A stretch of 40,442 nucleotides of DNA, from positions 1 through 40,442 of the IMG/VR virus record IMGVR_UViG_3300031949_000092; one strand, given 5' to 3'. Position 1 is the stretch's first letter, and each line of letters begins with the position of its first letter. A model generated the notes under the pieces. That model saw only the letters and a program-made list of their open reading frames with translations, had not been told where the DNA came from and did not search any database. This stretch comes from a virus. A program made the translations under genes and the position numbers. Below, piece after piece: positions 7,809 to 40,442 of this stretch.

Positions 7809-8369
7809 TTAAAATTTACTGTTATTCATAAATAATGCTTTTTCAATTGGCCAACCCAGCATATAGATTCTCCTCCAAAAAGTTCCGTACTTTATTCCAA
7901 AATAGTCAGCCCAATTAGCTACTGTATCTCTGATACCTTTAAATTCGATATAGCGATTTCTGTTAGTATTATTGGCCTGTTCTCTTAATGTTACCCATCT
8001 ACAATTTTCCTTAAAATAACCTTTATCATTATCAATCCTGTCAATTTGTAGTTCATCTTTATAACTTAAATACATATCTTCGTAAAAACCCTTAAATGAT
8101 TGCCATTTATCACAAACATTTATCCCACGAGCGCCATATCTACTATAATTCAGTTGATTAGGATTTTGACATCTACGTTTAATTCCCTCCCATATTCTAT
8201 AAAAACGTGTGCCTTCTAAACCGAACGCTTGTCCTGTTTTGGGATTAAAAGAAACTTGTCCTCTTAAAGTTGCCCAATAACATTTATGAGAACAATATTT
8301 TCTTTTTGAAGCTCTATAAGGATATTCTTCAAACTCTTTTTTACAAACTTGACACTTAAATTTATTCAC
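7809..8369 (-). CDS. Free-standing homing-endonuclease-like protein (zinc finger plus IDRIDNDKGY..NCRWVT..EQ.NN module)
   Basis: N-terminal CxxC..CSHKCY finger. The central YRIW..IKRRC..Y..YGARGI and DRID..NCRW motifs are typical of phage HNH-type homing-nuclease families. Confidence 0.6.
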   Translation of the reverse strand: MNKFKCQVCKKEFEEYPYRASKRKYCSHKCYWATLRGQVSFNPKTGQAFGLEGTRFYRIWEGIKRRCQNPNQLNYSRYGARGINVCDKWQSFKGFYEDMYLSYKDELQIDRIDNDKGYFKENCRWVTLREQANNTNRNRYIEFKGIRDTVANWADYFGIKYGTFWRRIYMLGWPIEKALFMNNSKF

Positions 8370-12040: not shown

Positions 12041-13150
12041 TTAGACTCCTGTTATTGAATGGCCTTGACCGTTTACGTTTGGCCTCCAAGTTGCGATTTG
12101 ACCGATTACATAGAATCTTGCGATTGTTCCTGCCTGGTCGGGCATCATAAGGGGCGGTTGATAAAACCATCCGTTAAAGTTTGAGGGCATTTCCGCTTGT
12201 GCCAAACTCTCCGTTGCGTCTAAAGAACCCAGGTTTACTTTTTCAAGTCCAAGTTTTGCGTATTCGCTCGGTACTACCGTTCTTCCGAACCATCCGAGGG
12301 AATCTTCATTTAATTTATACCAAACAGCAGATGTCGCCTTTTTGTCCTTGATTACCGGCATTCCCCTGTGGTGGAGTGAAAGGAATCCTGCCGCTCCGCC
12401 CAATTTAGCATCAGCAGAACCCTCTCCTCTGACGCTCATCCTTGGAAAACCGCCTGAGTTGTAGTTGGCCCTGACCTGAGGGTCTAAAAGTTCCTCGTAA
12501 AGACTCCAAACTGCAAAAGTTGTTAAGTTAAGATTAGGTACTGCCGCGGCCTCTCCGCCCTTTGCGCAAGCGTCATCCAAAGTAGCAAGCTTGGCTAGAG
12601 TCATTGTTCCCCAGCTTGTGTAGGTTGCATCCAAGACGTCGTAGCTTGACCTTGTTTGTCCCCCGATTGTCGCTGCATTGGTTCCGTTGTCAACTATTGC
12701 CTGAAGGCCGTTTGGAGTATCTCCTGCTCCCGTCCCGTAAGCTGCCTCGGCTATCGCATCAACAGCTTCAAGTGCAGCCTCTTCATACTTATAGGCATCC
12801 AAAGGAATAACTCCCTCCGGTCCTGCGTTTGCGAAAGACTCTAACATTATGCTCACTTTGGGCTGCGTTCCTGCTGTGTGGGCGAATGAAAGAGTTATTT
12901 CATTGTCTTCTGCTGAAGAGTTTAAATTCTCAAGTCCGGTAAACCATTCAAATTGCGAGGATTGCTGGTACTTAATTGTCCAGTCCATTACAACTCCCCT
13001 GAATGGCTTTGCCTTGCCCATCAATCGGGAAAGATAAGTCGGAGCTTCTAATATAGTATCTACGACTTTCCCATGAAGCGCTCGTAATGTTTTACCCTCT
13101 ACTCTGTTTGAAGGGTTGATTCCATCGGGCGTTGTTGAAAATCCTGCCAT
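12041..13150 (-). CDS. Major capsid protein (HK97-fold type, inferred)
   Basis: 369 aa, positioned after the portal and scaffold genes. Size and composition are typical, but no search was run. Confidence 0.7.
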   Translation of the reverse strand: MAGFSTTPDGINPSNRVEGKTLRALHGKVVDTILEAPTYLSRLMGKAKPFRGVVMDWTIKYQQSSQFEWFTGLENLNSSAEDNEITLSFAHTAGTQPKVSIMLESFANAGPEGVIPLDAYKYEEAALEAVDAIAEAAYGTGAGDTPNGLQAIVDNGTNAATIGGQTRSSYDVLDATYTSWGTMTLAKLATLDDACAKGGEAAAVPNLNLTTFAVWSLYEELLDPQVRANYNSGGFPRMSVRGEGSADAKLGGAAGFLSLHHRGMPVIKDKKATSAVWYKLNEDSLGWFGRTVVPSEYAKLGLEKVNLGSLDATESLAQAEMPSNFNGWFYQPPLMMPDQAGTIARFYVIGQIATWRPNVNGQGHSITGV

Positions 13151-13239: not shown

Positions 13240-13965
13240 CTAGATATTGCCTGCCGCTATCTCTTCAAAGCTCTTCTCTTTTATATCCTTGTACTTAAAG
13301 CTTTCCCCTGTTTCCCTTACTTGGGTATTGCCGCTTATCGGTAAATCTGCCCCCGGCGGTCCTTCCAAAACTTGCGGGTGTGCGACCAATATATCTGAAA
13401 TGCTGGGAGTGTATTCAATCCCCTGTGACCTGTTTTGCTCAATCATCTTGCCTATAGCCAGAATAAGTTTCTTTCTTGCGTCATATCCGGCGTCGCCTTC
13501 TTTGGCCTCTTTCATTTGAGGAACTTTGCCTAGCTTCGAAAGCTGGTTGTACTGCGTGTACCAGCCTTGTACTATTCCGTTTATCCTCTCCTGCCTTTGT
13601 GTTTCGGATTGCTTTTCTTCCTTCTCGCCCTCCTCCTCCAGTTTGGCGAACCTTTGCTCCAGTTGCTCATTTACTATCTTTTTAAGAGCATCGGCATCTG
13701 TTGGTAGGGCTTCCTCTTGCTTCTTAGTCAGTCCAAGAGCATCTCCTATCTTCTGGATGACGGATTTGCTTACTTCCTGACTTACAACGCCCGATACGTC
13801 CTTAGTAATTGAATCTTTTAATGAAGCTACCTGCTCGTCTGAAAGTTGCGCTTGCGGTGTAGTCTGAGGTTGTTTCTCGCCTTGAGGTTGAACTTCCTTA
13901 GTCGGAACTTCCTTTGGTATCTCTTGGCCTTTATCCTCATTATTTTGAGCTTTATCGTCAGCCAT
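13240..13965 (-). CDS. Scaffolding protein
   Basis: 241 aa, highly charged (E, K, Q) and helical in character, located between the portal and MCP genes. Confidence 0.65.
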   Translation of the reverse strand: MADDKAQNNEDKGQEIPKEVPTKEVQPQGEKQPQTTPQAQLSDEQVASLKDSITKDVSGVVSQEVSKSVIQKIGDALGLTKKQEEALPTDADALKKIVNEQLEQRFAKLEEEGEKEEKQSETQRQERINGIVQGWYTQYNQLSKLGKVPQMKEAKEGDAGYDARKKLILAIGKMIEQNRSQGIEYTPSISDILVAHPQVLEGPPGADLPISGNTQVRETGESFKYKDIKEKSFEEIAAGNI

Positions 13966-14166: not shown

Positions 14167-16134
14167 CTAACGATTAAAAAGCTTGCTAATCGCACCCGTC
14201 GCTTTTCCAATCAGATTACGAGGCGAACCGCTGGGTACTTCACTAACCGCCTGTGGATTCTGAGGTGAGGGTTGCATTGGTGGTTGGGGTTGGTAAGGCC
14301 CTTGAGGATTACCGAAACTCATTAAGTTCTGTTGATTCATTCCCATTACTTGGTTGGCCACGTCCTGTAACTCCATTCCCTTAGCATACTTTTGGATATA
14401 CATTTCGGGGTTGGTCTGGAACATAAAAAGCATCTCGGCTCTTTTTTCGGCGTCGGTTCTACCTACATCTTGGAAGTAGTTAATAGGGTCGATTAAACCT
14501 AGAGTTGCTTCTTCTTTCGCCATGCGCTCTCGTTTTAGTTTGTCCGTTCCCGATGCCTTGATTGACACTTCCAGTCCATCCTCAATAACATCTGAAGTTA
14601 ACCTTTCTTGAACTTCTCCTCCTTGCCTACCTATTAGTAATTGAAAGTGCTGTGAAGTGTACCTCAATTTAAACATGTGCAAGAGTGCCTCGGCCATCTC
14701 TGTCGCTACCTTGTTTATAGCCAAATCAGAGAAATCATCGGCAATCGTAAAACTTGCCTCTCTTTGGATTTGGGTAGTTGTGGCAACGTCGCTTGTCAGC
14801 TCACCGCTTGCCGCACCCGATATATGAAGTTTCTCCTTCACTCTTTGCTTAGTCCTTTCCAAGTCACCGAACATGGCTTGGCTTGGCTGCTCCTTTTTAA
14901 TGAATGCGTGTACTTCTCCCAAATTGCCGTCTACGACAATATCCTCATCGGGGTCGTTCAAGTCCATCTCCTCAATGGTTTCCTTTTTAAGGCCGGACAT
15001 CGTTGAAAAGACGTGCTTGCCCCTCGCGTCGTCTATCATCTTGGTTATCTGCATTCCACGAGTGTCGTAATTGTCCTGAAGAAGCCTGTTCTCCTCTATG
15101 CGTGATATTTCGTCAAAAGCCGACTCGCCGTATTGCTCATAGCCCATGAATATAAACGGCTTCCTCGGCTTCCCGAAGTAGTTTCTGTAAACAGTCTTCA
15201 TCTCAACACCCGGAACCTGCATACCCATCATCGAGATTTGTGGTAGCATCTCATCCGATACCGGCTTTCCGTTGAAGAACGGCTTTTCCTCGCCGTCCCA
15301 GTCCCAGTTGGGGTTCTTCCTCTTGTCTAAGATGCTCTTCTCGCCCTTGCCGGCTTTCCAGAGTATCCCGCTCATGCTCTCGAACTCCGGCTCTTTGGGG
15401 TCGAAGTTCTCGGCCTTTTCTTTCCAGTCGAACCATATCTCCTGCACTTTTAAGTCGAACGCCCGACCCTCCTCGTCGTTGGTTTCCTTCCAACCTTTAT
15501 CCCTTGCGAAGTCCTTTAACTCATCCTCTTTCTCAGGGAATAAGATTATCCAATCGTAAAGGCACCTCTCTACCTCGTGGATGATGAGCTTCATGTATCT
15601 TTCGTTATTCTTGGTGGCGGAGGTGTCTATCTTTATATACTTAGCCGGTATGACTTCCCACTCAATATCGCCCAGCTTGCCCTTGCTTGAATTCCAGTAG
15701 TATTTAATTACTCCGGTTAAATCTAATGAATGCCGCCTGAAAGCTAGAGTAAGAAGTTGTTTAAGCTCGTCGCTTTGAAGAGTCTTGTTTACAGCCTCGC
15801 TGATTAAGTCGGCAACTTCGGTGGAAACCTGTGATTCAGCGCCGGGGTTAACGATTATGTCGGGAAGCCTCGAAAGGACTAAGGTACGAAGCGTGTCCTC
15901 GCCTTCCTTGATTACATTGTCTATGTACTTCTTCTCGTAGGTTTTTAATTCAACGTCATCTAACTGCCTGCCGAATAAATACTTTGTGTTGGTTTTGCGT
16001 CTTTCGGTAAGTTTCTTGGTCTTATCAAATTCGTCGTATTTCTTCTCGTACTGCTCAATAAAGAAAGCCAGCTTTTTATCCTCTAAGTCGAGATTTAATA
16101 CAGGGGCCGCCTCTTTTCCTTGTTCTTCTTCCAT
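14167..16134 (-). CDS. Portal protein
   Basis: 655 aa, located downstream of TerL (a 96-aa ORF intervenes) and upstream of the scaffold and MCP genes. It has a Pro/Gln-rich C-terminal tail. Confidence 0.75.
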   Translation of the reverse strand: MEEEQGKEAAPVLNLDLEDKKLAFFIEQYEKKYDEFDKTKKLTERRKTNTKYLFGRQLDDVELKTYEKKYIDNVIKEGEDTLRTLVLSRLPDIIVNPGAESQVSTEVADLISEAVNKTLQSDELKQLLTLAFRRHSLDLTGVIKYYWNSSKGKLGDIEWEVIPAKYIKIDTSATKNNERYMKLIIHEVERCLYDWIILFPEKEDELKDFARDKGWKETNDEEGRAFDLKVQEIWFDWKEKAENFDPKEPEFESMSGILWKAGKGEKSILDKRKNPNWDWDGEEKPFFNGKPVSDEMLPQISMMGMQVPGVEMKTVYRNYFGKPRKPFIFMGYEQYGESAFDEISRIEENRLLQDNYDTRGMQITKMIDDARGKHVFSTMSGLKKETIEEMDLNDPDEDIVVDGNLGEVHAFIKKEQPSQAMFGDLERTKQRVKEKLHISGAASGELTSDVATTTQIQREASFTIADDFSDLAINKVATEMAEALLHMFKLRYTSQHFQLLIGRQGGEVQERLTSDVIEDGLEVSIKASGTDKLKRERMAKEEATLGLIDPINYFQDVGRTDAEKRAEMLFMFQTNPEMYIQKYAKGMELQDVANQVMGMNQQNLMSFGNPQGPYQPQPPMQPSPQNPQAVSEVPSGSPRNLIGKATGAISKLFNR

Positions 16135-16151: not shown

Positions 16152-16442
16152 CTAGTTGACTTCGGGATTTCTTGTGTGAACCAGTCCAGCAAAGGTATAG
16201 TACATTCCGCAATTTTCCCAAGTGCCGTCGCGTCTTTGAACCGAGCCTTTGCATTTTAAAGTAGTATTGGGTATGTATGGAGAACCTCCAGGGACTATCT
16301 GAATTGCGTCGCCCTCGTACTCTATTATCGGTATGCGGCAATTAAAACAGAAGAACATCTTGCGCTTGTCGCCAAAGGCTTCGTTCTCGGAGTCTAACCA
16401 AATCACAACGGATTTTTTGATGCCTGGAGCTGACTTGCTCAT
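16152..16442 (-). CDS. Hypothetical Cys-containing protein between TerL and portal
   Basis: 96-aa ORF with CFNC plus two distal Cys residues. A leaderless-type promoter sits at its ATG. Confidence 0.6.
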   Translation of the reverse strand: MSKSAPGIKKSVVIWLDSENEAFGDKRKMFFCFNCRIPIIEYEGDAIQIVPGGSPYIPNTTLKCKGSVQRRDGTWENCGMYYTFAGLVHTRNPEVN

Positions 16443-16458
16443 TAATTAATTGTATCAC
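16443..16458 (-). promoter_or_regulatory. Extended -10 promoter fused to the ATG (GTGATACAATTAATTA-ATG)
   Basis: TGnTACAAT with 6 nt to the ATG. The TG is supplied by the TGA stop of TerL. Confidence 0.6.
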
Positions 16459-17825
16459 TTCGTAAATTTTGACAAGTCTATTCTGTGAGCGGCGGTGGGT
16501 GATATGAATGGCCTTTGCTTCGGCCTCCCTATCGTGCCAAGTGCAACACCTATTTGTTTTGCAAGACGGTACGACATCTCAAGGGCGTCAAGTGCATCCA
16601 AATACTCTACATCGGGATATTCCTGCATTTCATTCCACAATTCATTTCCTCCCTTAAAAAGAATTTGCCCTGTATTTATCAATGGTTCCATGCCCTCTAT
16701 CCTCTCCTCTTTCTTTCTTTTCTGCTCCAAGCCTATAAATGGTATGTACTTGCCCAGAGCTTTGGACTTATCCTCGATAACCTTTAGGAAATACTTTTGA
16801 AACTGTATTGCCTCGATACCAAACCTGTCGAACTTATATGGTAAGTTTAGAATCCTCCTTATTGTTTCATCCGGCACGACCTGCTCTTCGAAACTTTCGA
16901 CCTCGTAGACTTGGCCTTTTTCGTCGACTCCTAGGACTACCATTCCCACCTTGCTTCCTTTTATCGCTTCCCCTAAAGACAAATCAACCGCACCGCAATA
17001 AACCAATTCAGTTGGCAGATACTCATACTTTTTTGGTTTGAAGTAGGCATATTCGGCTGGATTAGGAAATTCTACTAAATAATATCTTTTCCAATCCTTT
17101 GAGGTAGTTTGTCCTTTCTTCTCCTCAAGATACTTTCTGGTAAATCTTCCTTCTTCAATGGCTTGGTCTAAACTTATTCTTACTTTGTGGTAAAGCGGGT
17201 TATTGTAGGCTTTCTCGAACACGCTCTTTTCAATGCAGTTACCGCTCATTATTAACTTTCCCCAACCTTTTGTTTCCTCCGGCATTCTGACTACTTTTGA
17301 GAATTGCTCTTCGCTTCGTATCAATCCTGCTTCCTCCAAAATAACTATATCGCCGCCCTCTCCAACAACTCTTTCTCCCTCTCGGCTCATTGCCCTTGAC
17401 TCAACTGATGTTACATAAATCCAACCGCCATCTGACCATCTTAGTCCCTGCTTGCTCATAATAATTTTTAATCTTTCAATTTTTTCCGTGTCTATACCAA
17501 TTAAATTACTATAAAGAGGCTGAGAATCTGATACATGAGAAATTACATATTCCATAATTTTATTTGCTTTTTCCTGCGTTCCTGCAACTACTGGTATCTT
17601 TAAATGCCTTACACTAGCCAAATAAATAAGAGCCAAAGCAAGAACCTCTGTTTTTCCATATCTTGTTGGAGCTGATAACCAAAGCCACTTAATCTTGCGA
17701 TTCATTATTTCAGAAAACATTTTCGCCTGACCAGAAGTTAATTCGTAAGGATTTCTTTTGGAGTCTACAAAGTGGCTCTTAACTAGCTTTTTGTATGCTT
17801 CCTGCTTTAAGTTTTGGTCTTTCAT
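16455..17825 (-). CDS. terL: Terminase large subunit
   Basis: 456 aa with Walker A-like SAPTRYGKTE and Walker B-like DIVILEEAG, plus a C-terminal nuclease-like acidic region. Its position follows TerS. Confidence 0.85.
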   Translation of the reverse strand: MKDQNLKQEAYKKLVKSHFVDSKRNPYELTSGQAKMFSEIMNRKIKWLWLSAPTRYGKTEVLALALIYLASVRHLKIPVVAGTQEKANKIMEYVISHVSDSQPLYSNLIGIDTEKIERLKIIMSKQGLRWSDGGWIYVTSVESRAMSREGERVVGEGGDIVILEEAGLIRSEEQFSKVVRMPEETKGWGKLIMSGNCIEKSVFEKAYNNPLYHKVRISLDQAIEEGRFTRKYLEEKKGQTTSKDWKRYYLVEFPNPAEYAYFKPKKYEYLPTELVYCGAVDLSLGEAIKGSKVGMVVLGVDEKGQVYEVESFEEQVVPDETIRRILNLPYKFDRFGIEAIQFQKYFLKVIEDKSKALGKYIPFIGLEQKRKKEERIEGMEPLINTGQILFKGGNELWNEMQEYPDVEYLDALDALEMSYRLAKQIGVALGTIGRPKQRPFISPTAAHRIDLSKFTK

Positions 17826-18258
17826 TTAGTGATTCTATTTCATCTAAAGTGTTTTCTAACCTTTTAAGATATAGAGTAAAATCTCCAGTCTGCTGTATTT
17901 CTTTTTTGTCTATCCATTCAAAGTTATTCTTTAGATTAAAAATAGCACCCGTTTGATTAGGAGTTTCTAATAATCTTGTTTCAACATCTTCATGTACTTT
18001 TTCTCTTGCTTTTTTTATAGTGGGAAGAAACTCGTTCTTTTCAGCATAATCCACAAGCGTTCTTCTGCTCATTTCCAATCTTCTTGCCAACCCGCTCATT
18101 GTATAAGGTGCCGGATGAACTATTAAGATTTCTTTTCCAGTATCTTTGTCATAAATGGTTCTTGTCCGATTATCGCACCATTCAAAATACTCATCTATCT
18201 TTTTTTGCATTTCTTCCGGTGTTTCGAAAATTGGTGGTCTACCGCCTTTGTTCTTCAT
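17779..18258 (-). CDS. terS: Terminase small subunit
   Basis: GGRPPIFETPEEM..IDEYF..C, P.TMSGLARRL and FNLKNNFEW.DK fit the classical phage small-terminase pattern. AGGAG lies 8 nt upstream of the ATG. Confidence 0.8.
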   Translation of the reverse strand: MKNKGGRPPIFETPEEMQKKIDEYFEWCDNRTRTIYDKDTGKEILIVHPAPYTMSGLARRLEMSRRTLVDYAEKNEFLPTIKKAREKVHEDVETRLLETPNQTGAIFNLKNNFEWIDKKEIQQTGDFTLYLKRLENTLDEIESLNERPKLKAGSIQKAS

Positions 18259-18406
18259 TTACTTTCTCCTTTTTCCAATCAAAATGCTCTCTAATGTTTC
18301 TGAATACGTCTTTAGCTGATAAATGCTCTAGTGATTCCAGTCTTTCAAGCAAGAGTTTAAACTCATTAATCTTTTGTTGTGGTTGTTTGGGTTCTTGTTC
18401 TTTCAT
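18239..18406 (-). CDS. 55-aa hypothetical protein, not in the ORF track
   Basis: ATGA overlap with the upstream gene. The open frame overlaps the TerS start by 20 nt. Confidence 0.45.
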   Translation of the reverse strand: MKEQEPKQPQQKINEFKLLLERLESLEHLSAKDVFRNIREHFDWKKEKVNEEQRR

Positions 18407-18663
18407 TTTTCATTTTTATATATTTTATTTATCGTTTCATCCTCTTCGTAGTTTGGATTCTCTTTCTTTTTAAGGTCGGTCAGGGTAGGCCTTTTTGTTG
18501 TACCAAGGCTTTTCATCACTTCCTCATCCGGCAATTCTATAAGAGGTCTAATTGGCGTATTTCTAGGTAATGTATAAAACCTTATAATTTCCTCTTGGGT
18601 TTGGGGCGGTAATCTTGAATCCAATATCTTTATTACTAAATCGTAAACCTTTTGATTAAACAT
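18403..18663 (-). CDS. Hypothetical protein
   Basis: 86-aa ORF, tightly packed with its neighbours. Confidence 0.55.
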   Translation of the reverse strand: MFNQKVYDLVIKILDSRLPPQTQEEIIRFYTLPRNTPIRPLIELPDEEVMKSLGTTKRPTLTDLKKKENPNYEEDETINKIYKNEK

Positions 18664-18880
18664 TCTTTAATATTTCCAATTTCCTTTCTAAAATCGGTAT
18701 TCTTTTGGCTTGCTTCTTTGCGTATTTCAGGCTTTCTTTTGTAGAACAATATTCGCACCATCTCGTATAACCACCATGAATGAAATCCATCATGCTTCCT
18801 TGGCCCACCCAATTTATTGTGGCTTTGCGCTTCTTACAGTTAGTGCAAATATCTAAGTCTTTAGGTTTTTCTCTCGCCAT
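18656..18880 (-). CDS. Zinc-ribbon protein
   Basis: 74 aa with CTNC...CEYC. AGGAG/AAGGA lies upstream of the ATG. Confidence 0.6.
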   Translation of the reverse strand: MAREKPKDLDICTNCKKRKATINWVGQGSMMDFIHGGYTRWCEYCSTKESLKYAKKQAKRIPILERKLEILKNV

Positions 18881-19220
18881 TCCTTGCTCCTTCCGCCTTT
18901 GCTTTTATCAATCTGCCAACTTCCCTTCAAGTCCTTCCAAACATATTTTGCGTTCTTTACTTGTTCTTGAGTAACTTCTAAACCGCTTGTTGAATATTCG
19001 TCTAGATACTCCCGACTAAGCACTCCCCCCCTAAATGGCTGTAAAGCGTCTTTCCTGAATTCACGCCTTCCTTCTTTAATGCTTTCGCTAGTCCATTCTC
19101 TTTCATAGTGCGGTTTGTCTTTGTCTTGTCTGCAAACTTTACAGAAAGTTACTCCATAAACTTCGTCAATTTCTGCCAGCCGTTTATTACAATTACCACA
19201 GAGTATTTTTTTTTAATCAT
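18853..19220 (-). CDS. Zinc-ribbon protein whose ATG is separated from the body by a -1 frame change in an A9 run
   Basis: ATG-ATT-A9 at 19220-19206 (ATGA overlap with the GroEL stop). The 113-codon open frame (CGNC...CKVC) is reached only by a -1 slip or if the run is really A10. Confidence 0.5.
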
Positions 19221-20803
19221 TTCTTTTCCTCCTCAATCTCTGCGACAATGCCTTCCGCAGTAGTGAGAGATATTGCAACTGCAACTGCATTATTTAATGC
19301 TTCAACTAAAACTTGAGTGGGATCAATTATGCCTTCTTTCATCATATTGACAACATCTTCAGTGACAACATTAACTCCATATCCAAATCCTTTTTCTTTT
19401 ACTCTCAACGTCATTTCTCCACTATTTAGCCCTGCATTTCCAAGCAATTTATCAAATGGCTTTCTAATCGCATTTTTTAATATTCGATAAGCATAGTCTT
19501 CATCTTCAGTTTCGGGTTTTAAAACATCATCTATAAACAAAAGAACTGTTTCTCCCCCAGGAACAACCCCATCCTTGATTGATGAGCGAGTTGCAAGGAT
19601 TGCATCTTCACAACGCTCCCTGCGTTCTTCCGCTATAGATTCAACATGTCCCCCCACTCTAATAACATAAACTCCCCCGGTCAGCTTAGCCAGCCTTTCT
19701 CTTAATTTCTCTCTATCAAATTCTTTCTCTTCCTCTTTTAACTGGTTCTTTATTGAGTTAATCCGTTCCTTGATTTTCTTGGGGTCGCCCTTGCCTCCCC
19801 GGATAGTCGTCGCCTCTTTTGTAGAGACTACCTTGTCGGCGTGTCCTAAATCTTTTAATTCAATCTCTTTTAGTTTCATTTTGGCATCGCTTGAGATAAA
19901 CTTCGCACCCACAACCGTCGCTATATCCTGAAGTATGTTTTTGGTGTTGAAGCCCGGTGCCTTAATTGCCAGCATATTCGCCTTGCCGGTTACTTTATTA
20001 TTTATCAAGCTTACCAGTACCATGCCCTCTATGTCTTCCGCTATAACTACAAGGTTTTTCTCCTTTGCCTCGTTCATTTTTATAAACAAGGGCTGAATTT
20101 CAAAAGCGTCATCTAGCTTGTAATCGGTGACCAATATGTTTGCGTTACTTACCGAAGCGGTCATGTTGTCGGGATTTGTCACAAAGTATTCGGTCTTGTA
20201 GCCTGAGTCTATCTGCAAACCCTCCTGATGGTCTATAAAAGTATCCGGTCCCGTTATTTCCTCTGCCGTTATCACCGCGTCAACTCCTGCTTTCTCGTAA
20301 GTTTCGCCTATCAGTTTGCCCATTTGCTCATCCTCCGAACTTATCGTAGCCACTTGGATTTTCTGCTCTTTAGTCTTAACCGGAGTAGAGAGTTCCTTAA
20401 TCCTTTCAACAAGCAAGTCCCGCCCTTTCTCTAAACCGCTTCTCAAACTCATTGGATTTATACCAGCATTCGTAACTTTTAAAGCTTCTTCCATTATTGA
20501 ATAAGCTAGTAAAATCGTTAATGTAGTACCATCTCCCACACTTTCCACAGTTTCTCTCGCGGATTGCTTAATTATCTCCGCTCCTGCACTCTCAAATGGG
20601 TTTTTAGGATTAATGGTCTCACTAACTTTCAGACCATCATGAAGTAATTTTGTCCTGTGTGGTTGCCAAGTAACAATATTTCTGCCACGAATACCTAATG
20701 TAGTTGATACGGCTCGATTTACTCTACTCGCACCTTTTAGTAGTTTTTCTCTAGCTTTTATCCCGTGTATTTCTTTGCTATATTTCATGGATTTATTTCC
20801 CAT
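19217..20803 (-). CDS. groEL: GroEL-type chaperonin (Cpn60)
   Basis: Motifs VGDGTTLTILLA, AIKAPGF, LTGGVYVIRVGG and DGVVPGGE are present. It ends EIEEEKK with no GGM tail. The ATG at 20788 gives a canonical N-terminal length. Confidence 0.9.
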   Translation of the reverse strand: MGNKSMKYSKEIHGIKAREKLLKGASRVNRAVSTTLGIRGRNIVTWQPHRTKLLHDGLKVSETINPKNPFESAGAEIIKQSARETVESVGDGTTLTILLAYSIMEEALKVTNAGINPMSLRSGLEKGRDLLVERIKELSTPVKTKEQKIQVATISSEDEQMGKLIGETYEKAGVDAVITAEEITGPDTFIDHQEGLQIDSGYKTEYFVTNPDNMTASVSNANILVTDYKLDDAFEIQPLFIKMNEAKEKNLVVIAEDIEGMVLVSLINNKVTGKANMLAIKAPGFNTKNILQDIATVVGAKFISSDAKMKLKEIELKDLGHADKVVSTKEATTIRGGKGDPKKIKERINSIKNQLKEEEKEFDREKLRERLAKLTGGVYVIRVGGHVESIAEERRERCEDAILATRSSIKDGVVPGGETVLLFIDDVLKPETEDEDYAYRILKNAIRKPFDKLLGNAGLNSGEMTLRVKEKGFGYGVNVVTEDVVNMMKEGIIDPTQVLVEALNNAVAVAISLTTAEGIVAEIEEEKK

Positions 20804-21101
20804 AAACCATCAACACTTTTCCGAACGGAACTATCCTGAATTGCTCACCCTCAATCTTGAAAGTCTCGAATCCGCCCGCTGAATGAACAAGTGTTTGTCC
20901 GACTTTTACCGGGGATTCGACTATTAGCTTTCTTTCTTCGTCATAATAGGAATCACCAACTTTCAGGACTTTTGCCAACTGTGGGAATTCATCAGCGACT
21001 ATTTCTATTCCTTCGCTTGAAGTTTTATCGAGAGGTTCGACGAGTATATATCCGGCGACAGGTATGAAGTTTTCTATTTTCATCGGTATATTTTTTACCA
21101 T
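20793..21101 (-). CDS. groES: GroES-type co-chaperonin (Cpn10)
   Basis: About 100 aa, overlapping groEL by 11 nt. The pattern GYILVEP...GIEIV...AKVLKVGD...VKVGQTLV resembles Cpn10 beta-barrel spacing. Confidence 0.65.
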   Translation of the reverse strand: MVKNIPMKIENFIPVAGYILVEPLDKTSSEGIEIVADEFPQLAKVLKVGDSYYDEERKLIVESPVKVGQTLVHSAGGFETFKIEGEQFRIVPFGKVLMVYGK

Positions 21102-21116
21102 AACCCTATTATATCA
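21102..21116 (-). promoter_or_regulatory. Extended -10 promoter fused to the groES ATG (TGATATAATAGGGTT-ATG)
   Basis: TGnTATAAT with 6 nt to the ATG. The upstream TAA stop lies inside the hexamer. Confidence 0.6.
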
Positions 21117-21270
21117 AACTTTCAATTTGTTTGATAAATTGCTTATTTAAACTCTTCCGGTTCTCCAATCCTCCGCCTTTACCTTGGTCTTCGTATATAG
21201 GTTTAGCTAACTTTTTAGCCCTCCCATTTTTTACTATCCAGTGAAACTTGTAATCTATTACACGGAGCAT
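21109..21270 (-). CDS. 53-aa hypothetical protein, not in the ORF track
   Basis: The open frame checked clean. It sits downstream of a TTGACA-N18-CATAAT promoter. Confidence 0.45.
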   Translation of the reverse strand: MLRVIDYKFHWIVKNGRAKKLAKPIYEDQGKGGGLENRKSLNKQFIKQIESLI

Positions 21271-21899: not shown

Positions 21900-22007
21900 T
21901 TATCCTATTGAAACTCTCAAATTCTTAGGCAGTCCTTTAAGACGCTCTATGGTAATTTTCTTTTTAAGTTCTTCAAGCTCTTTTTTGGACATCTTTTTCT
22001 TTTTCAT
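21900..22007 (-). CDS. 35-aa Lys-rich peptide
   Basis: ATG at 22007 is preceded by the conserved intergenic element. It contains ITIERLKGL, which recurs as a remnant at about 22620-22650. Confidence 0.35.
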   Translation of the reverse strand: MKKKKMSKKELEELKKKITIERLKGLPKNLRVSIG

Positions 22008-22034
22008 TTATATATAAGGGTAGGGTTGGGATTA
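22008..22034 (-). repeat. Conserved intergenic element, copy A (TAATCCCAACCCTACCCTTATATATAA-ATG)
   Basis: Near-identical to the copy at 22293-22317. It begins with the upstream stop codon and ends at the next ATG. Confidence 0.7.
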
Positions 22035-22292
22035 GACCTCTATAAACCTAGAACCATCTTCAAGTATAATTTCCCTTAAATTTTGTTTTACTTTAATCTT
22101 AGGCTCGTGTCTTACTAACTCTCTATTAAGTGCGTTTAAAACATTGACAAGCCTTCTTTTAATTCTCGCTAGTCTATTCTCAGAACGAGTTTGATTAGGT
22201 GTCCCTACTTTTCCAATTGAAGTTAAAATGCTTAAAGCCTCGTCAGTAAACTTTAGACTTACTAGCCTATTTTTATTTTCTTTCTTTCTCAT
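22032..22292 (-). CDS. Hypothetical basic protein
   Basis: 86-aa ORF. Confidence 0.6.
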   Translation of the reverse strand: MRKKENKNRLVSLKFTDEALSILTSIGKVGTPNQTRSENRLARIKRRLVNVLNALNRELVRHEPKIKVKQNLREIILEDGSRFIEV

Positions 22293-22317
22293 ATATATAA
22301 GGGTAAGGTTGAGATTA
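22293..22317 (-). repeat. Conserved intergenic element, copy B (TAATCTCAACCTTACCCTTATATAT-ATG)
   Basis: Second copy of the element at 22008-22034. Confidence 0.7.
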
Positions 22318-22608
22318 GGGATTTCCTTTAATCCAATCCTCCCCAGACTGACTTCCTATTCCAAATTTGTGGTCAAAACAACCACACCAATCATGTTCAA
22401 AGACAAGCTTACCGAACTTATTTGAATTAGGATTTACAATCACTCCCCAATCTGAACCCAATATCCCCGATAGTTCAACATAATAAGGACAAAATAAAGC
22501 TTGATAACCAACTCTATTTTCATCAAACACATTTGCACTATATTCTCTACTTATAAGTAATTCACATAATTTTTTGTGTATTTGGTTGTGCGTATATTTC
22601 TTTAACAT
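22315..22608 (-). CDS. Hypothetical protein
   Basis: 97-aa ORF with GAGAGGA upstream of the ATG. Confidence 0.6.
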   Translation of the reverse strand: MLKKYTHNQIHKKLCELLISREYSANVFDENRVGYQALFCPYYVELSGILGSDWGVIVNPNSNKFGKLVFEHDWCGCFDHKFGIGSQSGEDWIKGNP

Positions 22609-33233: not shown

Positions 33234-34175
33234 TTATGCCTCCGCTATTGCGACTACGATATTCCAAGTAGGAGTTGCCGAATTATAAATACAACCTATA
33301 TAGTGAGTTTTATTGGCTACTGTAGTTGTGGGAGCCGTGCATCCAATGGCTGTAAATCCAGTCCAAGTTAAACCTTTAGCCACTCCTGCGTCTTTAAGTC
33401 TAATTATTAGTTTTTGCCCATTAACAGGCGTTCCTGTAACTGTAAATTCCGTAGCATTAGCAATAGCAGTTAATTGATATTGGTCGGTAACATCAACATC
33501 TATTACTGCGGTTGCGTCATCCGTAGTCGTAACCACTCTCGGAGATATTCTTTTATTGGTCATCGTAACCGTTCCACTTGCAACATGAGCCTTAACCGAT
33601 TGCTGAGAGGGTACTTTGGTAGCTGAGTCTGTCGCCATATCATCCTCATCTAACATCCAAGCCGCACCTGATAATGAGGTCATGTCGTGAAGCCCGTCGG
33701 GAGTTACTGCAAGCGTTGCTGATGTCCCCGTTGTTGTCTCCGCCGTAGTTGCTAATTCAACCTTGCCTGCCGTAGTTGAATCCGCAGCCGTCACTAAATC
33801 TGTTACATCACTGTCAACTGATACAACGCCCGTATCTGCCCTAATAACCCCTGTAAGCCCCACAGGTAAGGTCACAGTCCCTGTAAAAGTAGGGGAGGCA
33901 AGAGGAGCTGCTCCCAAAGAGGTTAAGGCTGCTGCTGCACTTGTAGCGCCTGTTCCTCCTTGTGCCACCGATAAGGCGGTAGTAAGGCCAGACAACGATG
34001 TAATATCAGAGTTGGCACCCGAAGCCGCAAGACCGCTGATTAAATTAGACCTTGTAATATTTTTGGAAGTTCCATCGGCTGAGTCTGATGTGTCACTTAC
34101 ATCAACAATATAAAGTTTATCTCCAGAAGCCACCGAAGATAAACCCGTCAGAGAAGTTAGTTTGCTATCAGCCAT
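33234..34175 (-). CDS. Tail fibre protein
   Basis: The N-terminus has SKLTSL..L...DKLYIVD and LSVAQGGTGATSAAAALTSLGAAPLASPTFTGTVT, a widespread phage fibre motif. Confidence 0.8.
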   Translation of the reverse strand: MADSKLTSLTGLSSVASGDKLYIVDVSDTSDSADGTSKNITRSNLISGLAASGANSDITSLSGLTTALSVAQGGTGATSAAAALTSLGAAPLASPTFTGTVTLPVGLTGVIRADTGVVSVDSDVTDLVTAADSTTAGKVELATTAETTTGTSATLAVTPDGLHDMTSLSGAAWMLDEDDMATDSATKVPSQQSVKAHVASGTVTMTNKRISPRVVTTTDDATAVIDVDVTDQYQLTAIANATEFTVTGTPVNGQKLIIRLKDAGVAKGLTWTGFTAIGCTAPTTTVANKTHYIGCIYNSATPTWNIVVAIAEA

Positions 34176-34830
34176 AAATAAATTCCTCCTTTCTCATTCT
34201 CGGATTCATATAACTTTTAGTTTTTTTATGGCAGTCCACGCAAAGTGTCCTACCATTGTCAATAGCAAGTCGTAGTTCTGGAAATAAAGCAAAGGGTTTA
34301 ACGTGGTCAGCGTGCAAATCGGTATTACCCCTTACTCCACATTTAGTACAACTATAATTATCTCTAGTAAAAACGGCTATCCTCCACAAGAGATATTCCG
34401 TAGAAGTTCTAATTTTATGATTTAACGGAGTAATTCCACCCTTCCAAGATGGATTTTCTTTTCCACGATAATGTGGAAGTCTTCTTGCACTCCCTAATTT
34501 TTTATGTGTATTACTCATTTTTTTTCTAGTTTGTTTAGAAGATTTTTTACCATACATCGGATTTTTGTTACCCATTTTTGTTTCACTTAAATGTTTTTTA
34601 GTAATTTCGGTGTGTTTAAAACCTAATCCATTTTTGTTCCCTATAAGCTTCTTCCTTATTTTTATACGAGTTTCTGGTTTCATTGGATGTTCTTTGCCCT
34701 TCAGTGAGATAGAGTAACATTTATGACTACAAAATTTACTGTCTTTAAAGACAGGAGAAACTAAATATTTTTCTGAACAAGTTAAGCAAATTTTTTCAAC
34801 TTTAGCATAGTTCCATGGTCTATTTATCAT
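34168..34830 (-). CDS. HNH homing endonuclease with NUMOD-like repeats
   Basis: HADHVKPF...NGRTLCVDCHKKT is the HNH core. It also has repeated GKxHP/GNKNP..K motifs and the N-terminal CxxC..CSHKCY finger shared with 7809-8369. Confidence 0.8.
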   Translation of the reverse strand: MINRPWNYAKVEKICLTCSEKYLVSPVFKDSKFCSHKCYSISLKGKEHPMKPETRIKIRKKLIGNKNGLGFKHTEITKKHLSETKMGNKNPMYGKKSSKQTRKKMSNTHKKLGSARRLPHYRGKENPSWKGGITPLNHKIRTSTEYLLWRIAVFTRDNYSCTKCGVRGNTDLHADHVKPFALFPELRLAIDNGRTLCVDCHKKTKSYMNPRMRKEEFIYG

Positions 34831-40187: not shown

Positions 40188-40442
40188 TCCTCTTCCCCTT
40201 CATCCGTTAATTCCTCATAAATGAGATTGACTCCTGTTATTCGAGGAAACGTAACTGCTGAGCTTAAAAAATCGAAACCGAATTCAATCTCCTTGATTGG
40301 CATATTTATGTAGAGATTTGCCTCTGTTTCACCCACCGTCGTTACTGCCGTTCCCGAAGTAAAAGTTCCACTGCGATTTATGTCATAGACAGGCGTTACG
40401 GAATCCCCTGAAACTAACGGTTCAAAAGTTATTTCTAATTTA
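40184..40442 (-). CDS. C-terminal end of the 618-aa wrap-around structural protein (40316-40442 duplicates 1-127)
   Basis: The frame checked open from 40315 down to the TGA at 40186-40184. The protein ends ...LIYEELTDEGEEE. Confidence 0.85.
   Translation of the reverse strand, partial: KLEITFEPLVSGDSVTPVYDINRSGTFTSGTAVTTVGETEANLYINMPIKEIEFGFDFLSSAVTFPRITGVNLIYEELTDEGEEE
40316..40442. repeat. Second copy of the 127-bp terminal overlap
   Basis: Identical to bases 1-127. Confidence 0.95.

Follow-up and report, generated by a model that had tools for sequence, protein, structure and literature searches.

Viral genomes that encode both a GroEL-type chaperonin and a GroES-type co-chaperonin, along with the unusual loops of such GroES proteins, have been known since 2017, when Marine et al. 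(2017, ISME J 11:2479; PMC5649160) found GroES on 133 of 337 GroEL-bearing virome contigs. The order was GroES>GroEL on 63 contigs and GroEL>GroES on 70, with the two orders forming separate GroEL clades. According to the same study, 23% of viral GroES proteins have a polar or charged residue as the second or third member of the loop triplet, GroES>GroEL clusters (15 and 18) have Asn or Ser instead of the loop Gly, and GroEL>GroES clusters have lost the roof hairpin. This report concerns a stretch of viral DNA of 40,442 nucleotides – IMG/VR record IMGVR_UViG_3300031949_000092, positions 1 to 40,442, hereafter called the window – and the two adjacent genes on its minus strand that encode a Cpn10/GroES-type co-chaperonin and a Cpn60/GroEL group I chaperonin. 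The pair is a new, compact member of the already described viral GroES>GroEL lineage; judging by its sequence and by structure models, it is complete, resident in the phage and apparently functional.

A first-pass annotation of the window, made from the letters of the DNA, had held that known phages encode either a co-chaperonin only or a GroEL-like protein only, and that viral pairs are poorly characterised. The former statement is contradicted by pairs annotated in RefSeq, the latter by the detailed account of both gene orders in PMC5649160. Several cultured phages carry such pairs: in the 160-kb Flavobacterium phage vB_FspM_immuto_2-6A (NC_055915) the order is GroES>GroEL, next to polA; in the 60-kb Flavobacterium phage elemoE_6-9C (NC_055854) it is reversed, GroEL>GroES; and in the 73-kb Cellulophaga phage Calle_1 (NC_062744) a Cpn10 gene, an open reading frame (ORF) and GroEL follow one another next to polA. 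Cellulophaga phage phi38:1 is grouped with these cultured carriers of annotated pairs. Cpn10 and Cpn60 are adjacent or nearly so in all of them, with genomes of 60-160 kb and GroEL proteins 31-37% identical to that of the window, and – unlike in the window – none of the immuto, elemo and Calle_1 pairs lies upstream of a packaging and head module. A further pair, unannotated, was noticed in the cultured Bacteroides phage DAC23 (MT074142.1, 179 kb; our locus L095, positions 315-578 and 592-2214), where one of the two 'hypothetical proteins' matches the Cpn10 family of Pfam at 1.2e-21 and the other is a GroEL 38% identical to that of the window.

Other phages encode a single component of a chaperonin system that serves to fold phage proteins. 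T4 (gp31) and RB49 (CocO) have a co-chaperonin only, whereas the window encodes both partners, and gp31, which is without the roof hairpin, ranks only 34th in the fold search made with the Cpn10 of the window. The chaperonins of Pseudomonas phage EL (gp146), OBP and AR9 are GroEL-like only, whereas the GroEL of the window has a cognate Cpn10; EL-type chaperonins act without a co-chaperonin (PMC7185714) and are ~23% identical to the GroEL of the window.

A parallel in both size and layout is offered by GenBank record MW202566.1 (Caudoviricetes sp. ctHkR962, Manatee Spring), a circular genome of 38,956 bp with the same succession of genes: a Cpn10-like ORF of 107 amino acids (aa) labelled 'mhsp60', groeL, small ORFs, the terminase large subunit gene (terL), an ORF of ~95 aa and the portal gene. 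Since its layout is the same, a genome of ~40 kb that carries the pair is not unprecedented. The two portals are homologous (E 1e-40) and the two GroELs 35.7% identical, yet the phages are distant, with unrelated terL genes, Cpn10 proteins only 21% identical and no similarity at the DNA level. The window ranks with the smallest complete genomes of phages known to have a full chaperonin system, spending ~5% of its 40 kb on the pair.

With the GroES>GroEL clade of Marine et al., the window shares the gene order on a viral contig, a GroEL that stands apart from cellular ones, an altered loop and a roof hairpin that is kept; this likeness to marine and estuarine data is one of description, not a comparison with the sequences KU595435-KU595540 themselves. 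The alignment made here reproduces the loop-triplet, loop-Gly and hairpin features described in PMC5649160. There are differences too: small heat-shock genes lie upstream in 25 contigs of the published clade and none was seen in the window; linkage to the terminase small subunit gene (terS), the portal gene and the head genes, which is conserved in the lineage of the window, goes unmentioned in PMC5649160; and the loop Gly, changed to Asn or Ser in clusters 15 and 18, is kept in the window, which may belong to a sister subgroup of the published clusters. To what was already known in principle, the present analysis adds the position of the pair before terS, portal and head genes, conserved on ~60 viral contigs, a common TGnTATAAT-ATG start motif, a clade-invariant G416E substitution in GroEL and the dispensability of the pair for one and the same head type.

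The pair and its putative promoter are laid out as follows.

21108-21137, minus strand: predicted promoter of the pair, sigma-70-type, with a -35 box TTATCA, an 18-nt spacer and an extended -10 box TGaTATAAT

20793-21101, minus strand: Cpn10/GroES-type co-chaperonin, 102 aa (an alternative start at 21083 would give 96 aa)

19217-20788, minus strand: GroEL/Cpn60 group I chaperonin, 523 aa (longest ORF 19217-20803, 528 aa)

The larger gene matches Cpn60_TCP1 of Pfam (PF00118) with E 3.9e-48 and 164.8 bits (cut-off 34.3), PHROG 5725 'chaperonin groEL' at 8e-114 and a sequence in the PDB at 1e-106. Among NCBIfam subfamilies it passes PRK00013 (458.8 bits, cut-off 397) and PRK12849 (456.8 bits, cut-off 352); it misses the strict equivalog TIGR02348 (446.6 against 582.1 bits) and is for that reason to be regarded as a divergent member of the family. 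An AlphaFold2 model computed from an alignment of database homologues reaches a predicted local distance difference test score (pLDDT) of 88.7, and a Foldseek search places it at template modelling (TM) scores of 0.89-0.91 over 523 columns to GroEL structures from E. coli, E. faecium and others. In the model we find the three-domain arrangement – equatorial, intermediate and apical – of group I chaperonins. All the family motifs quoted in the first-pass annotation (VGDGTTLTILLA, AIKAPGF, GGVYVIRVGG and VPGGE) are found in the 528-aa ORF, and its remarks on divergence were likewise accurate: the protein ends in EIEEEKK without GGM repeats, and FNTKN stands in place of GFGDRRK, which an alignment resolves as a deletion of two residues. 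The 11-nt overlap that it reported between the two genes is correct for the longest ORF, which begins at 20803, although not for the likely start. A second ATG at 20788 (MKYSKE) agrees with the consensus N-terminus of the clade, with the GroEL profile and with the database call P0001 (523 aa); translation thus likely begins there, leaving a 4-nt spacer after the Cpn10 stop codon.

Compared with the E. coli system (PDB 1AON, 1KP8), the window has the same gene order (groES-groEL), the same Cpn10 β-barrel and the same three-domain GroEL fold, with a TM score of 0.90 over the whole length to apo E. coli GroEL (1mnf/1kp8); sequence identity is 38% for GroEL and ~21-25% for GroES. E. coli residue numbers were mapped onto the viral GroEL through the Salmonella protein. 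Of the ATP-site residues, D52, D87, G88, T89, T90, D398, G414, G415 and D495 are kept; six of them (D52, D87, D398, G414, G415 and D495) are invariant across 60 loci of the clade, and G88, T89 and T90 are present in 58-59 of the 60. On these residues, the site for ATP binding and hydrolysis is predicted to be intact. In the apical domain Y199, Y203, F204 and L259 are retained, L237F and V263I are conservative changes, and L234Q and V264N introduce polar side chains. The window departs from E. coli in lacking the GGM tail, in the deletion within GFGDRRK, in a shorter mobile loop with the triplet I-E-I, and at R452, E461, S463 and V464. A short, charged tail replaces the GGM repeats throughout the clade and, together with the two-residue deletion and G416E (60 of 60 viral loci), makes up the GroEL signatures of the clade.

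The 102-aa ORF had been taken for a co-chaperonin, and this identity holds, since a Cpn10 fold was found by AlphaFold2 and Foldseek. At the sequence level it matches Cpn10 of Pfam (PF00166) with 25.6 bits and E 1.3e-5 (gathering score 21.1) and PHROG 3188 'co-chaperonin GroES' at 6e-6; M. tuberculosis Cpn10 (1hx5) aligns with it end to end at E 8.8e-5, and a phmmer search started from the M. tuberculosis protein recovers it at 4e-6. The model has a pLDDT of 88.4 and a predicted TM score of 0.80, and the 35 best Foldseek matches in the PDB are all Cpn10, GroES, Hsp10, Cpn20 or T4 gp31 chains, headed by M. tuberculosis Cpn10 (1p3h_A, TM 0.79). The N-terminal strand, the roof hairpin (strands 46-48 and 53-55), the VGD turn and the C-terminal strands are all present. 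The only segment of the model with pLDDT below 50, residues 22-28 of the 96-aa form (SSEGIEI), falls at the position of the mobile loop. This loop is ~4 residues shorter than that of E. coli GroES and has I-E-I where E. coli has I25-V26-L27, with relatives keeping a hydrophobic-x-hydrophobic pattern; the loop Gly is retained here (SEGIEI), and in many relatives its place is taken by Ser, Asn or Asp. The gene adjoins the cpn60 gene in the same orientation, with 4 nt from its stop to the likely GroEL start.

The pair belongs to a sizeable viral lineage. A large protein database holds dozens of GroEL homologues that are 45-80% identical to the one in the window, mostly on contigs of 35-44 kb. In a neighbour-joining tree (169 sequences, 518 columns, Kimura distances, 100 bootstraps), the GroEL of the window lies within a clade of 92 leaves made up of viral or short-contig sequences only (bootstrap 100), nested in turn in a viral GroES>GroEL clade of 113 leaves (bootstrap 90); there is no named cellular sequence inside. 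The best cellular GroEL identity is ~44%. The gene is also at home in its genome as regards composition: its G+C content (GC) of 0.408, or 0.370 at third codon positions, compares with 0.403 for the whole genome, the correlation between its relative codon usage and that of the remaining genome is r = 0.81 – among the highest values of all genes – and there is no GC step at the chaperonin locus along the window. The lineage is without a close cultured representative: 20 kb of the window, searched at the DNA level through 50,697 phage records, gave no match, nor did a tblastn search of the same records with the Cpn10. A scan of GTDB species genomes, made with exact peptide words and so of limited sensitivity, yielded only an unrelated host GroEL at 38% (Wohlfahrtiimonas) and no prophage or metagenome-assembled genome (MAG) copy of the viral gene. 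One relative, a 39.6-kb contig whose GroEL is 60% identical (Logan SRR26786825; our locus L006), carries a tyrosine integrase at 156-1244, so that a temperate lifestyle is probable for part of the lineage; none of the scanned ORFs of the window is an integrase.

A second viral group, our loci L071-L088, has a GroEL with 33-34% identity, the reversed gene order and a Cpn10 without the roof hairpin. About 5 kb downstream of the pair these genomes have a 201-aa protein (L071:6917-7522, with equivalents through L072-L088) that scores ~1e-25 with an iterated Cpn10 hidden Markov model (HMM), goes unrecognised by Pfam and receives an hhalign probability of 4.8%; the match may be due to profile drift, or the protein may be a tandem Cpn10-like copy that has diverged very far.

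The surroundings of the pair are conserved as well. A profile of the clade recovered 80 IMG/VR loci, over all of whose ORFs the HMMs of window proteins were run. A Cpn10-like ORF (85-130 aa) lies directly upstream of GroEL in ~58 of these loci, and 53 of the Cpn10 calls, that of the window among them, were borne out by single-sequence phmmer searches started from the E. coli GroES and the M. tuberculosis Cpn10. Downstream of GroEL follow terS in 40 loci, a conserved protein of 80-160 aa in 49 and the portal in 40, with scaffold-position and major capsid proteins (MCPs) next wherever the flanks extend. A module of GroES, GroEL, small ORFs, terS, (terL), small protein and portal is thus common to ~60 IMG/VR contigs. 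The first-pass annotation had placed terS, terL, portal, a scaffold-sized ORF and the MCP downstream of the pair, and the ORF map and profile matches agree. In the window the module reads as follows, from the chaperonin onwards, with the terminal repeat of the window added as the last entry.

18239-19216, minus strand: small ORFs between GroEL and terS (18853-19023, 18656-18880, 18403-18663 and 18239-18406), without a family match

17779-18258, minus strand: terminase small subunit (Pfam GP3_package 5.8e-23; PHROG 606 7.5e-27)

16455-17825, minus strand: terminase large subunit (PHROG 38 4.3e-32)

16152-16442, minus strand: conserved 96-aa protein, always ahead of the portal, in 49 loci, with no Pfam match

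14167-16134, minus strand: portal, homologue of the annotated MW202566 portal (E 1e-40), with a TGcTATAAT-N6-ATG start

13240-13965, minus strand: scaffold-position protein, 241 aa, assigned by position and conserved in relatives, with a TGtTATAAT-N5-ATG start

12041-13150, minus strand: major capsid protein (PHROG 9953, major head protein, 1.8e-22)

1-127: terminal direct repeat, identical to 40316-40442, an assembly overlap

Because bases 1-127 recur exactly at 40316-40442, the contig closes into a circular genome of 40,315 bp, which bears out the earlier description of a 40-kb genome. The scaffold-position protein found no family match in the profile scans; the MCP is conserved among relatives both with and without the chaperonin. 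Between GroEL and terS, relatives likewise have two or three small ORFs, and the database record of the window calls only two. One of those in the window, at 18656-18880 on the minus strand, lies in a 550-nt stretch past GroEL that is uncalled in the record; it encodes 74 aa with two CxxC pairs, resembling a zinc ribbon, without a family match. A terL of the type found in the window was detected by its HMM in only 4 of the ~60 related loci, which places terL outside the conserved module, and the terL of MW202566 is unrelated; this suggests replacement of terL inside an otherwise stable head module.

A leaderless-type promoter had been proposed for the co-chaperonin gene, and the motif is indeed there, as TTATCA-18-TGaTATAAT-6-ATG at 21137-21099: it has 10 of 12 matches and the TG extension, and 6 nt separate its -10 box from the ATG at 21101. 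Of 58 related loci, 13 have the same arrangement at an in-frame Cpn10 start, the closest ones among them. It is also frequent within the window, where the coding strand has 12 copies of TATAAT-N5-7-ATG (shuffled sequences have 2.8 ± 1.6) and where 11 of the 12 sites, most with the TGn extension, run directly into ORFs of at least 53 aa.

35653, 35052, 21101, 16134, 14144, 13965, 10048, 9819, 9271, 7067 and 2708, minus strand: starts of the form TGnTATAAT-N5-7-ATG

Besides the Cpn10 ORF, the genes so marked are mostly structural and include the portal, the scaffold-position gene and tail proteins of 845 and 321 aa; the repeat families D2 and D3 of the window are these same TATAAT-ATG sites. Between the extended -10 box and the start codon there is no room for a Shine-Dalgarno sequence, a spacing which suggests that leaderless late transcripts are widespread here. 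The motif would also favour the 102-aa start of Cpn10 over the shorter form, and its distribution suggests that the pair is co-regulated with structural genes. A scan for an intrinsic terminator after GroEL found none.

We favour, with a probability of roughly 80%, an account in which the window carries a native phage group I chaperonin operon that serves the ATP-driven folding of late proteins. The gene for the Cpn10 lid would be followed after 4 nt by that for the Cpn60 ATPase, the two being probably coupled in translation and transcribed from an extended -10 promoter of their own. The products would assemble into one or more GroEL-like heptameric rings capped by the Cpn10 of the phage itself, a complex that would use ATP to encapsulate and fold late phage proteins – most probably proteins of the head module, for example the MCP or the portal. 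Virion morphogenesis would thereby rely less on how much host GroEL/ES there is or on how compatible it is. That the pair is complete, as the first-pass annotation had claimed, is borne out by folds, catalytic residues, adjacency, codon usage and recurrence on ~60 viral contigs. The I-E-I loop, the apical changes L234Q and V264N, and the clade-invariant G416E suggest a cognate pair that has become co-adapted. A late role linked to morphogenesis is plausible, as the promoter type is common to ten other, mostly structural, genes. The assembly of lambda, T4 and HK97 heads depends on GroEL/ES, and by this analogy head proteins are most likely the prime client candidates; with the pair placed before the head genes, the MCP (12041-13150) and the portal (14167-16134) are the concrete candidates.

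How tight the link to the head is can be gauged from relatives chosen by their portal rather than by their chaperonin. An IMG/VR search with the portal profile gave 460 relatives, of which the best 80 were fetched, and those whose portal is preceded by ~7.8 kb of sequence or more were treated as informative. Among 24 such relatives, the Cpn10-GroEL pair lies upstream of the portal in 16, and it is present in every relative that has a portal identity of at least 40% and enough sequence to judge. The eight pair-less loci keep the small protein, portal, scaffold and MCP, the last with HMM values of 1e-89 to 1e-120, comparable to those of the deeper pair-bearing members. An obligatory link between chaperonin and head type was accordingly rejected.

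Several observations weigh against the favoured account, in whole or in part. Those eight of the 24 informative relatives have no chaperonin in the fetched region, which reaches as far as ~10 kb from the portal in both directions, so that this capsid type does not strictly need a phage chaperonin. The pairs of immuto and Calle_1 are found beside replication genes, which makes the proximity to head genes a lineage-specific trait. The GroEL has substitutions within the ATP site itself (P33I in the TLGP loop, T91L and G416E), and none of the E. coli inter-ring contacts is retained (R452D, E461N, S463G and V464E), with the consequence that a single ring and a double ring are not distinguishable from the sequence. 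The scores of the co-chaperonin are modest and fall under every NCBIfam GroES cut-off, and the promoter, together with its leaderless reading, is suggested by sequence motifs only. The notion of a dedicated capsid-folding machine, put forward in the first-pass annotation, is plausible: synteny and promoter type favour a morphogenetic role, but with eight pair-less relatives the pair is not obligatory. The pair is a frequent, positionally fixed and dispensable companion of the head module, and for some members of the lineage host GroEL/ES presumably suffices. Such natural relatives without the pair constitute a built-in comparison, and a genome this small is a convenient model for asking why small phages pay for a folding machine and how orthogonal a phage lid and cage can be to those of the host.

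Of the other explanations, the one that survives best, although we still consider it unlikely, is that the pair acts as an auxiliary function in general proteostasis or stress adaptation – raising the folding capacity of the infected cell as a whole, for instance in the cold or under the load of phage protein synthesis – with no specific connection to the capsid. Viral GroEL/GroES genes are widespread over unrelated phage types in varied genomic contexts, a 2026 virome study lists them among genes associated with cold adaptation (PMC13547368), and the eight relatives that have the same head module without the pair would fit such a role. What speaks for the favoured, morphogenesis-linked account instead is the fixed position upstream of terS and the head genes, maintained while GroEL diverged to ~35% identity, along with the start motif common to portal, scaffold and tail genes.

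Clearly less probable is a role in compensating for, or insulating the phage from, a host chaperonin that is incompatible, limiting or targeted, the host being possibly a bacterium of the candidate phyla radiation (CPR) with its reduced genome and the phage pair being orthogonal and not cross-reacting. The nearest named cellular GroELs are indeed those of CPR bacteria (WWE3 and CPR3), with an identity of 42-44% (41-44% when a Patescibacteria MAG is included), whereas E. coli and Salmonella reach 38%. For the lid, a Cpn10-family profile search likewise led to a Patescibacteria MAG, whose GroES, in a clearly cellular context, is 37% identical and has the N-terminal AGYILVEP strand in common with the Cpn10 of the window. 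A bipartition of viral and CPR-like sequences against the rest has a bootstrap of 84, and the shortened I-E-I loop, L234Q and V264N have the look of changes that co-varied between lid and cage. The link is weakened by the choice of outgroups, which were the top matches of the query, and by the use of a distance-based tree with long branches. CPR GroELs, checked for shared derived characters, showed none of the viral signatures (G416E, deletion or tail), and CPR bacteria themselves encode GroES/GroEL. As for the host, no tRNA was found in the window, nor a close match among GTDB species genomes. The CPR link is consequently weak, and any such origin would be ancient. A bolder combination – an insulated, co-evolved lid-cage system placed in the late morphogenesis regulon of a widespread family of ~40-kb phages by leaderless promoters, anciently derived from CPR bacteria and perhaps still at work in CPR hosts – appears to us a little more doubtful again; were it true, the pair would be a marker of an otherwise unrecognised group of CPR phages.

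It is most improbable that GroEL acts alone, in the manner of gp146 of Pseudomonas phage EL, with the small ORF as the remnant of a Cpn10 that has decayed or been put to another use. The weak Cpn10 HMM scores and the shortened loop with Glu in the middle of its triplet would agree with this, and phage chaperonins independent of a co-chaperonin are documented (PMC7185714, and for EL gp146 a statement in PMC5649160). Yet the small ORF stands directly upstream of GroEL in ~58 loci, with a predicted intact fold, a flexible loop and a hydrophobic-x-hydrophobic motif; polar triplet residues are common in viral GroES (PMC5649160); and EL-type chaperonins are, at ~23% identity, remote from the GroEL of the window.

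Finally, a recent capture of host genes, contamination or a chimeric assembly joining a bacterial groESL to a phage contig – for which one could cite the bacterial groL genes on mislabelled or contaminated Salmonella, Enterococcus and Staphylococcus records among the top tblastn matches in the phage database – is effectively refuted by cellular identities of at most ~44%, the absence of a GC or codon break on a circular contig, the viral-only clade (bootstrap 100 and 90), the phage-type promoter motif and the recurrence of the same pair at the same position on ~60 independent viral contigs and in GenBank MW202566. The first-pass annotation had named a recent contaminant or chimera as what would overturn its view, and neither the tree nor the composition of the locus points to one.

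Independently of the window, five 'phage' records (OR848861, OR846590, OR844996, AGRM01000005 and CAKLQH020000021) proved to be bacterial sequence or to carry a cellular groS-groL, the organisms behind such mislabelled groEL records being Salmonella, Enterococcus, Staphylococcus and Acinetobacter. Given that several top records are bacterial, database matches to 'phage GroEL' need checking.

Elsewhere in the window, most other large ORFs were scanned and nothing was found for them in Pfam or PHROG (599, 845, 481, 701 and 299 aa). Two HNH endonuclease genes, likely homing or mobile elements, lie among the structural and tail genes at 7809-8369 and 34168-34830, with profile matches to PHROG 3377 at 4e-49 and to PHROG 8446 at 7e-14. 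Some 1-1.5 kb upstream of the chaperonin operon, a 42-nt direct repeat with 81% identity between its copies (21994-22035 and 22277-22318) precedes two consecutive small ORFs and may be a promoter or operator element.

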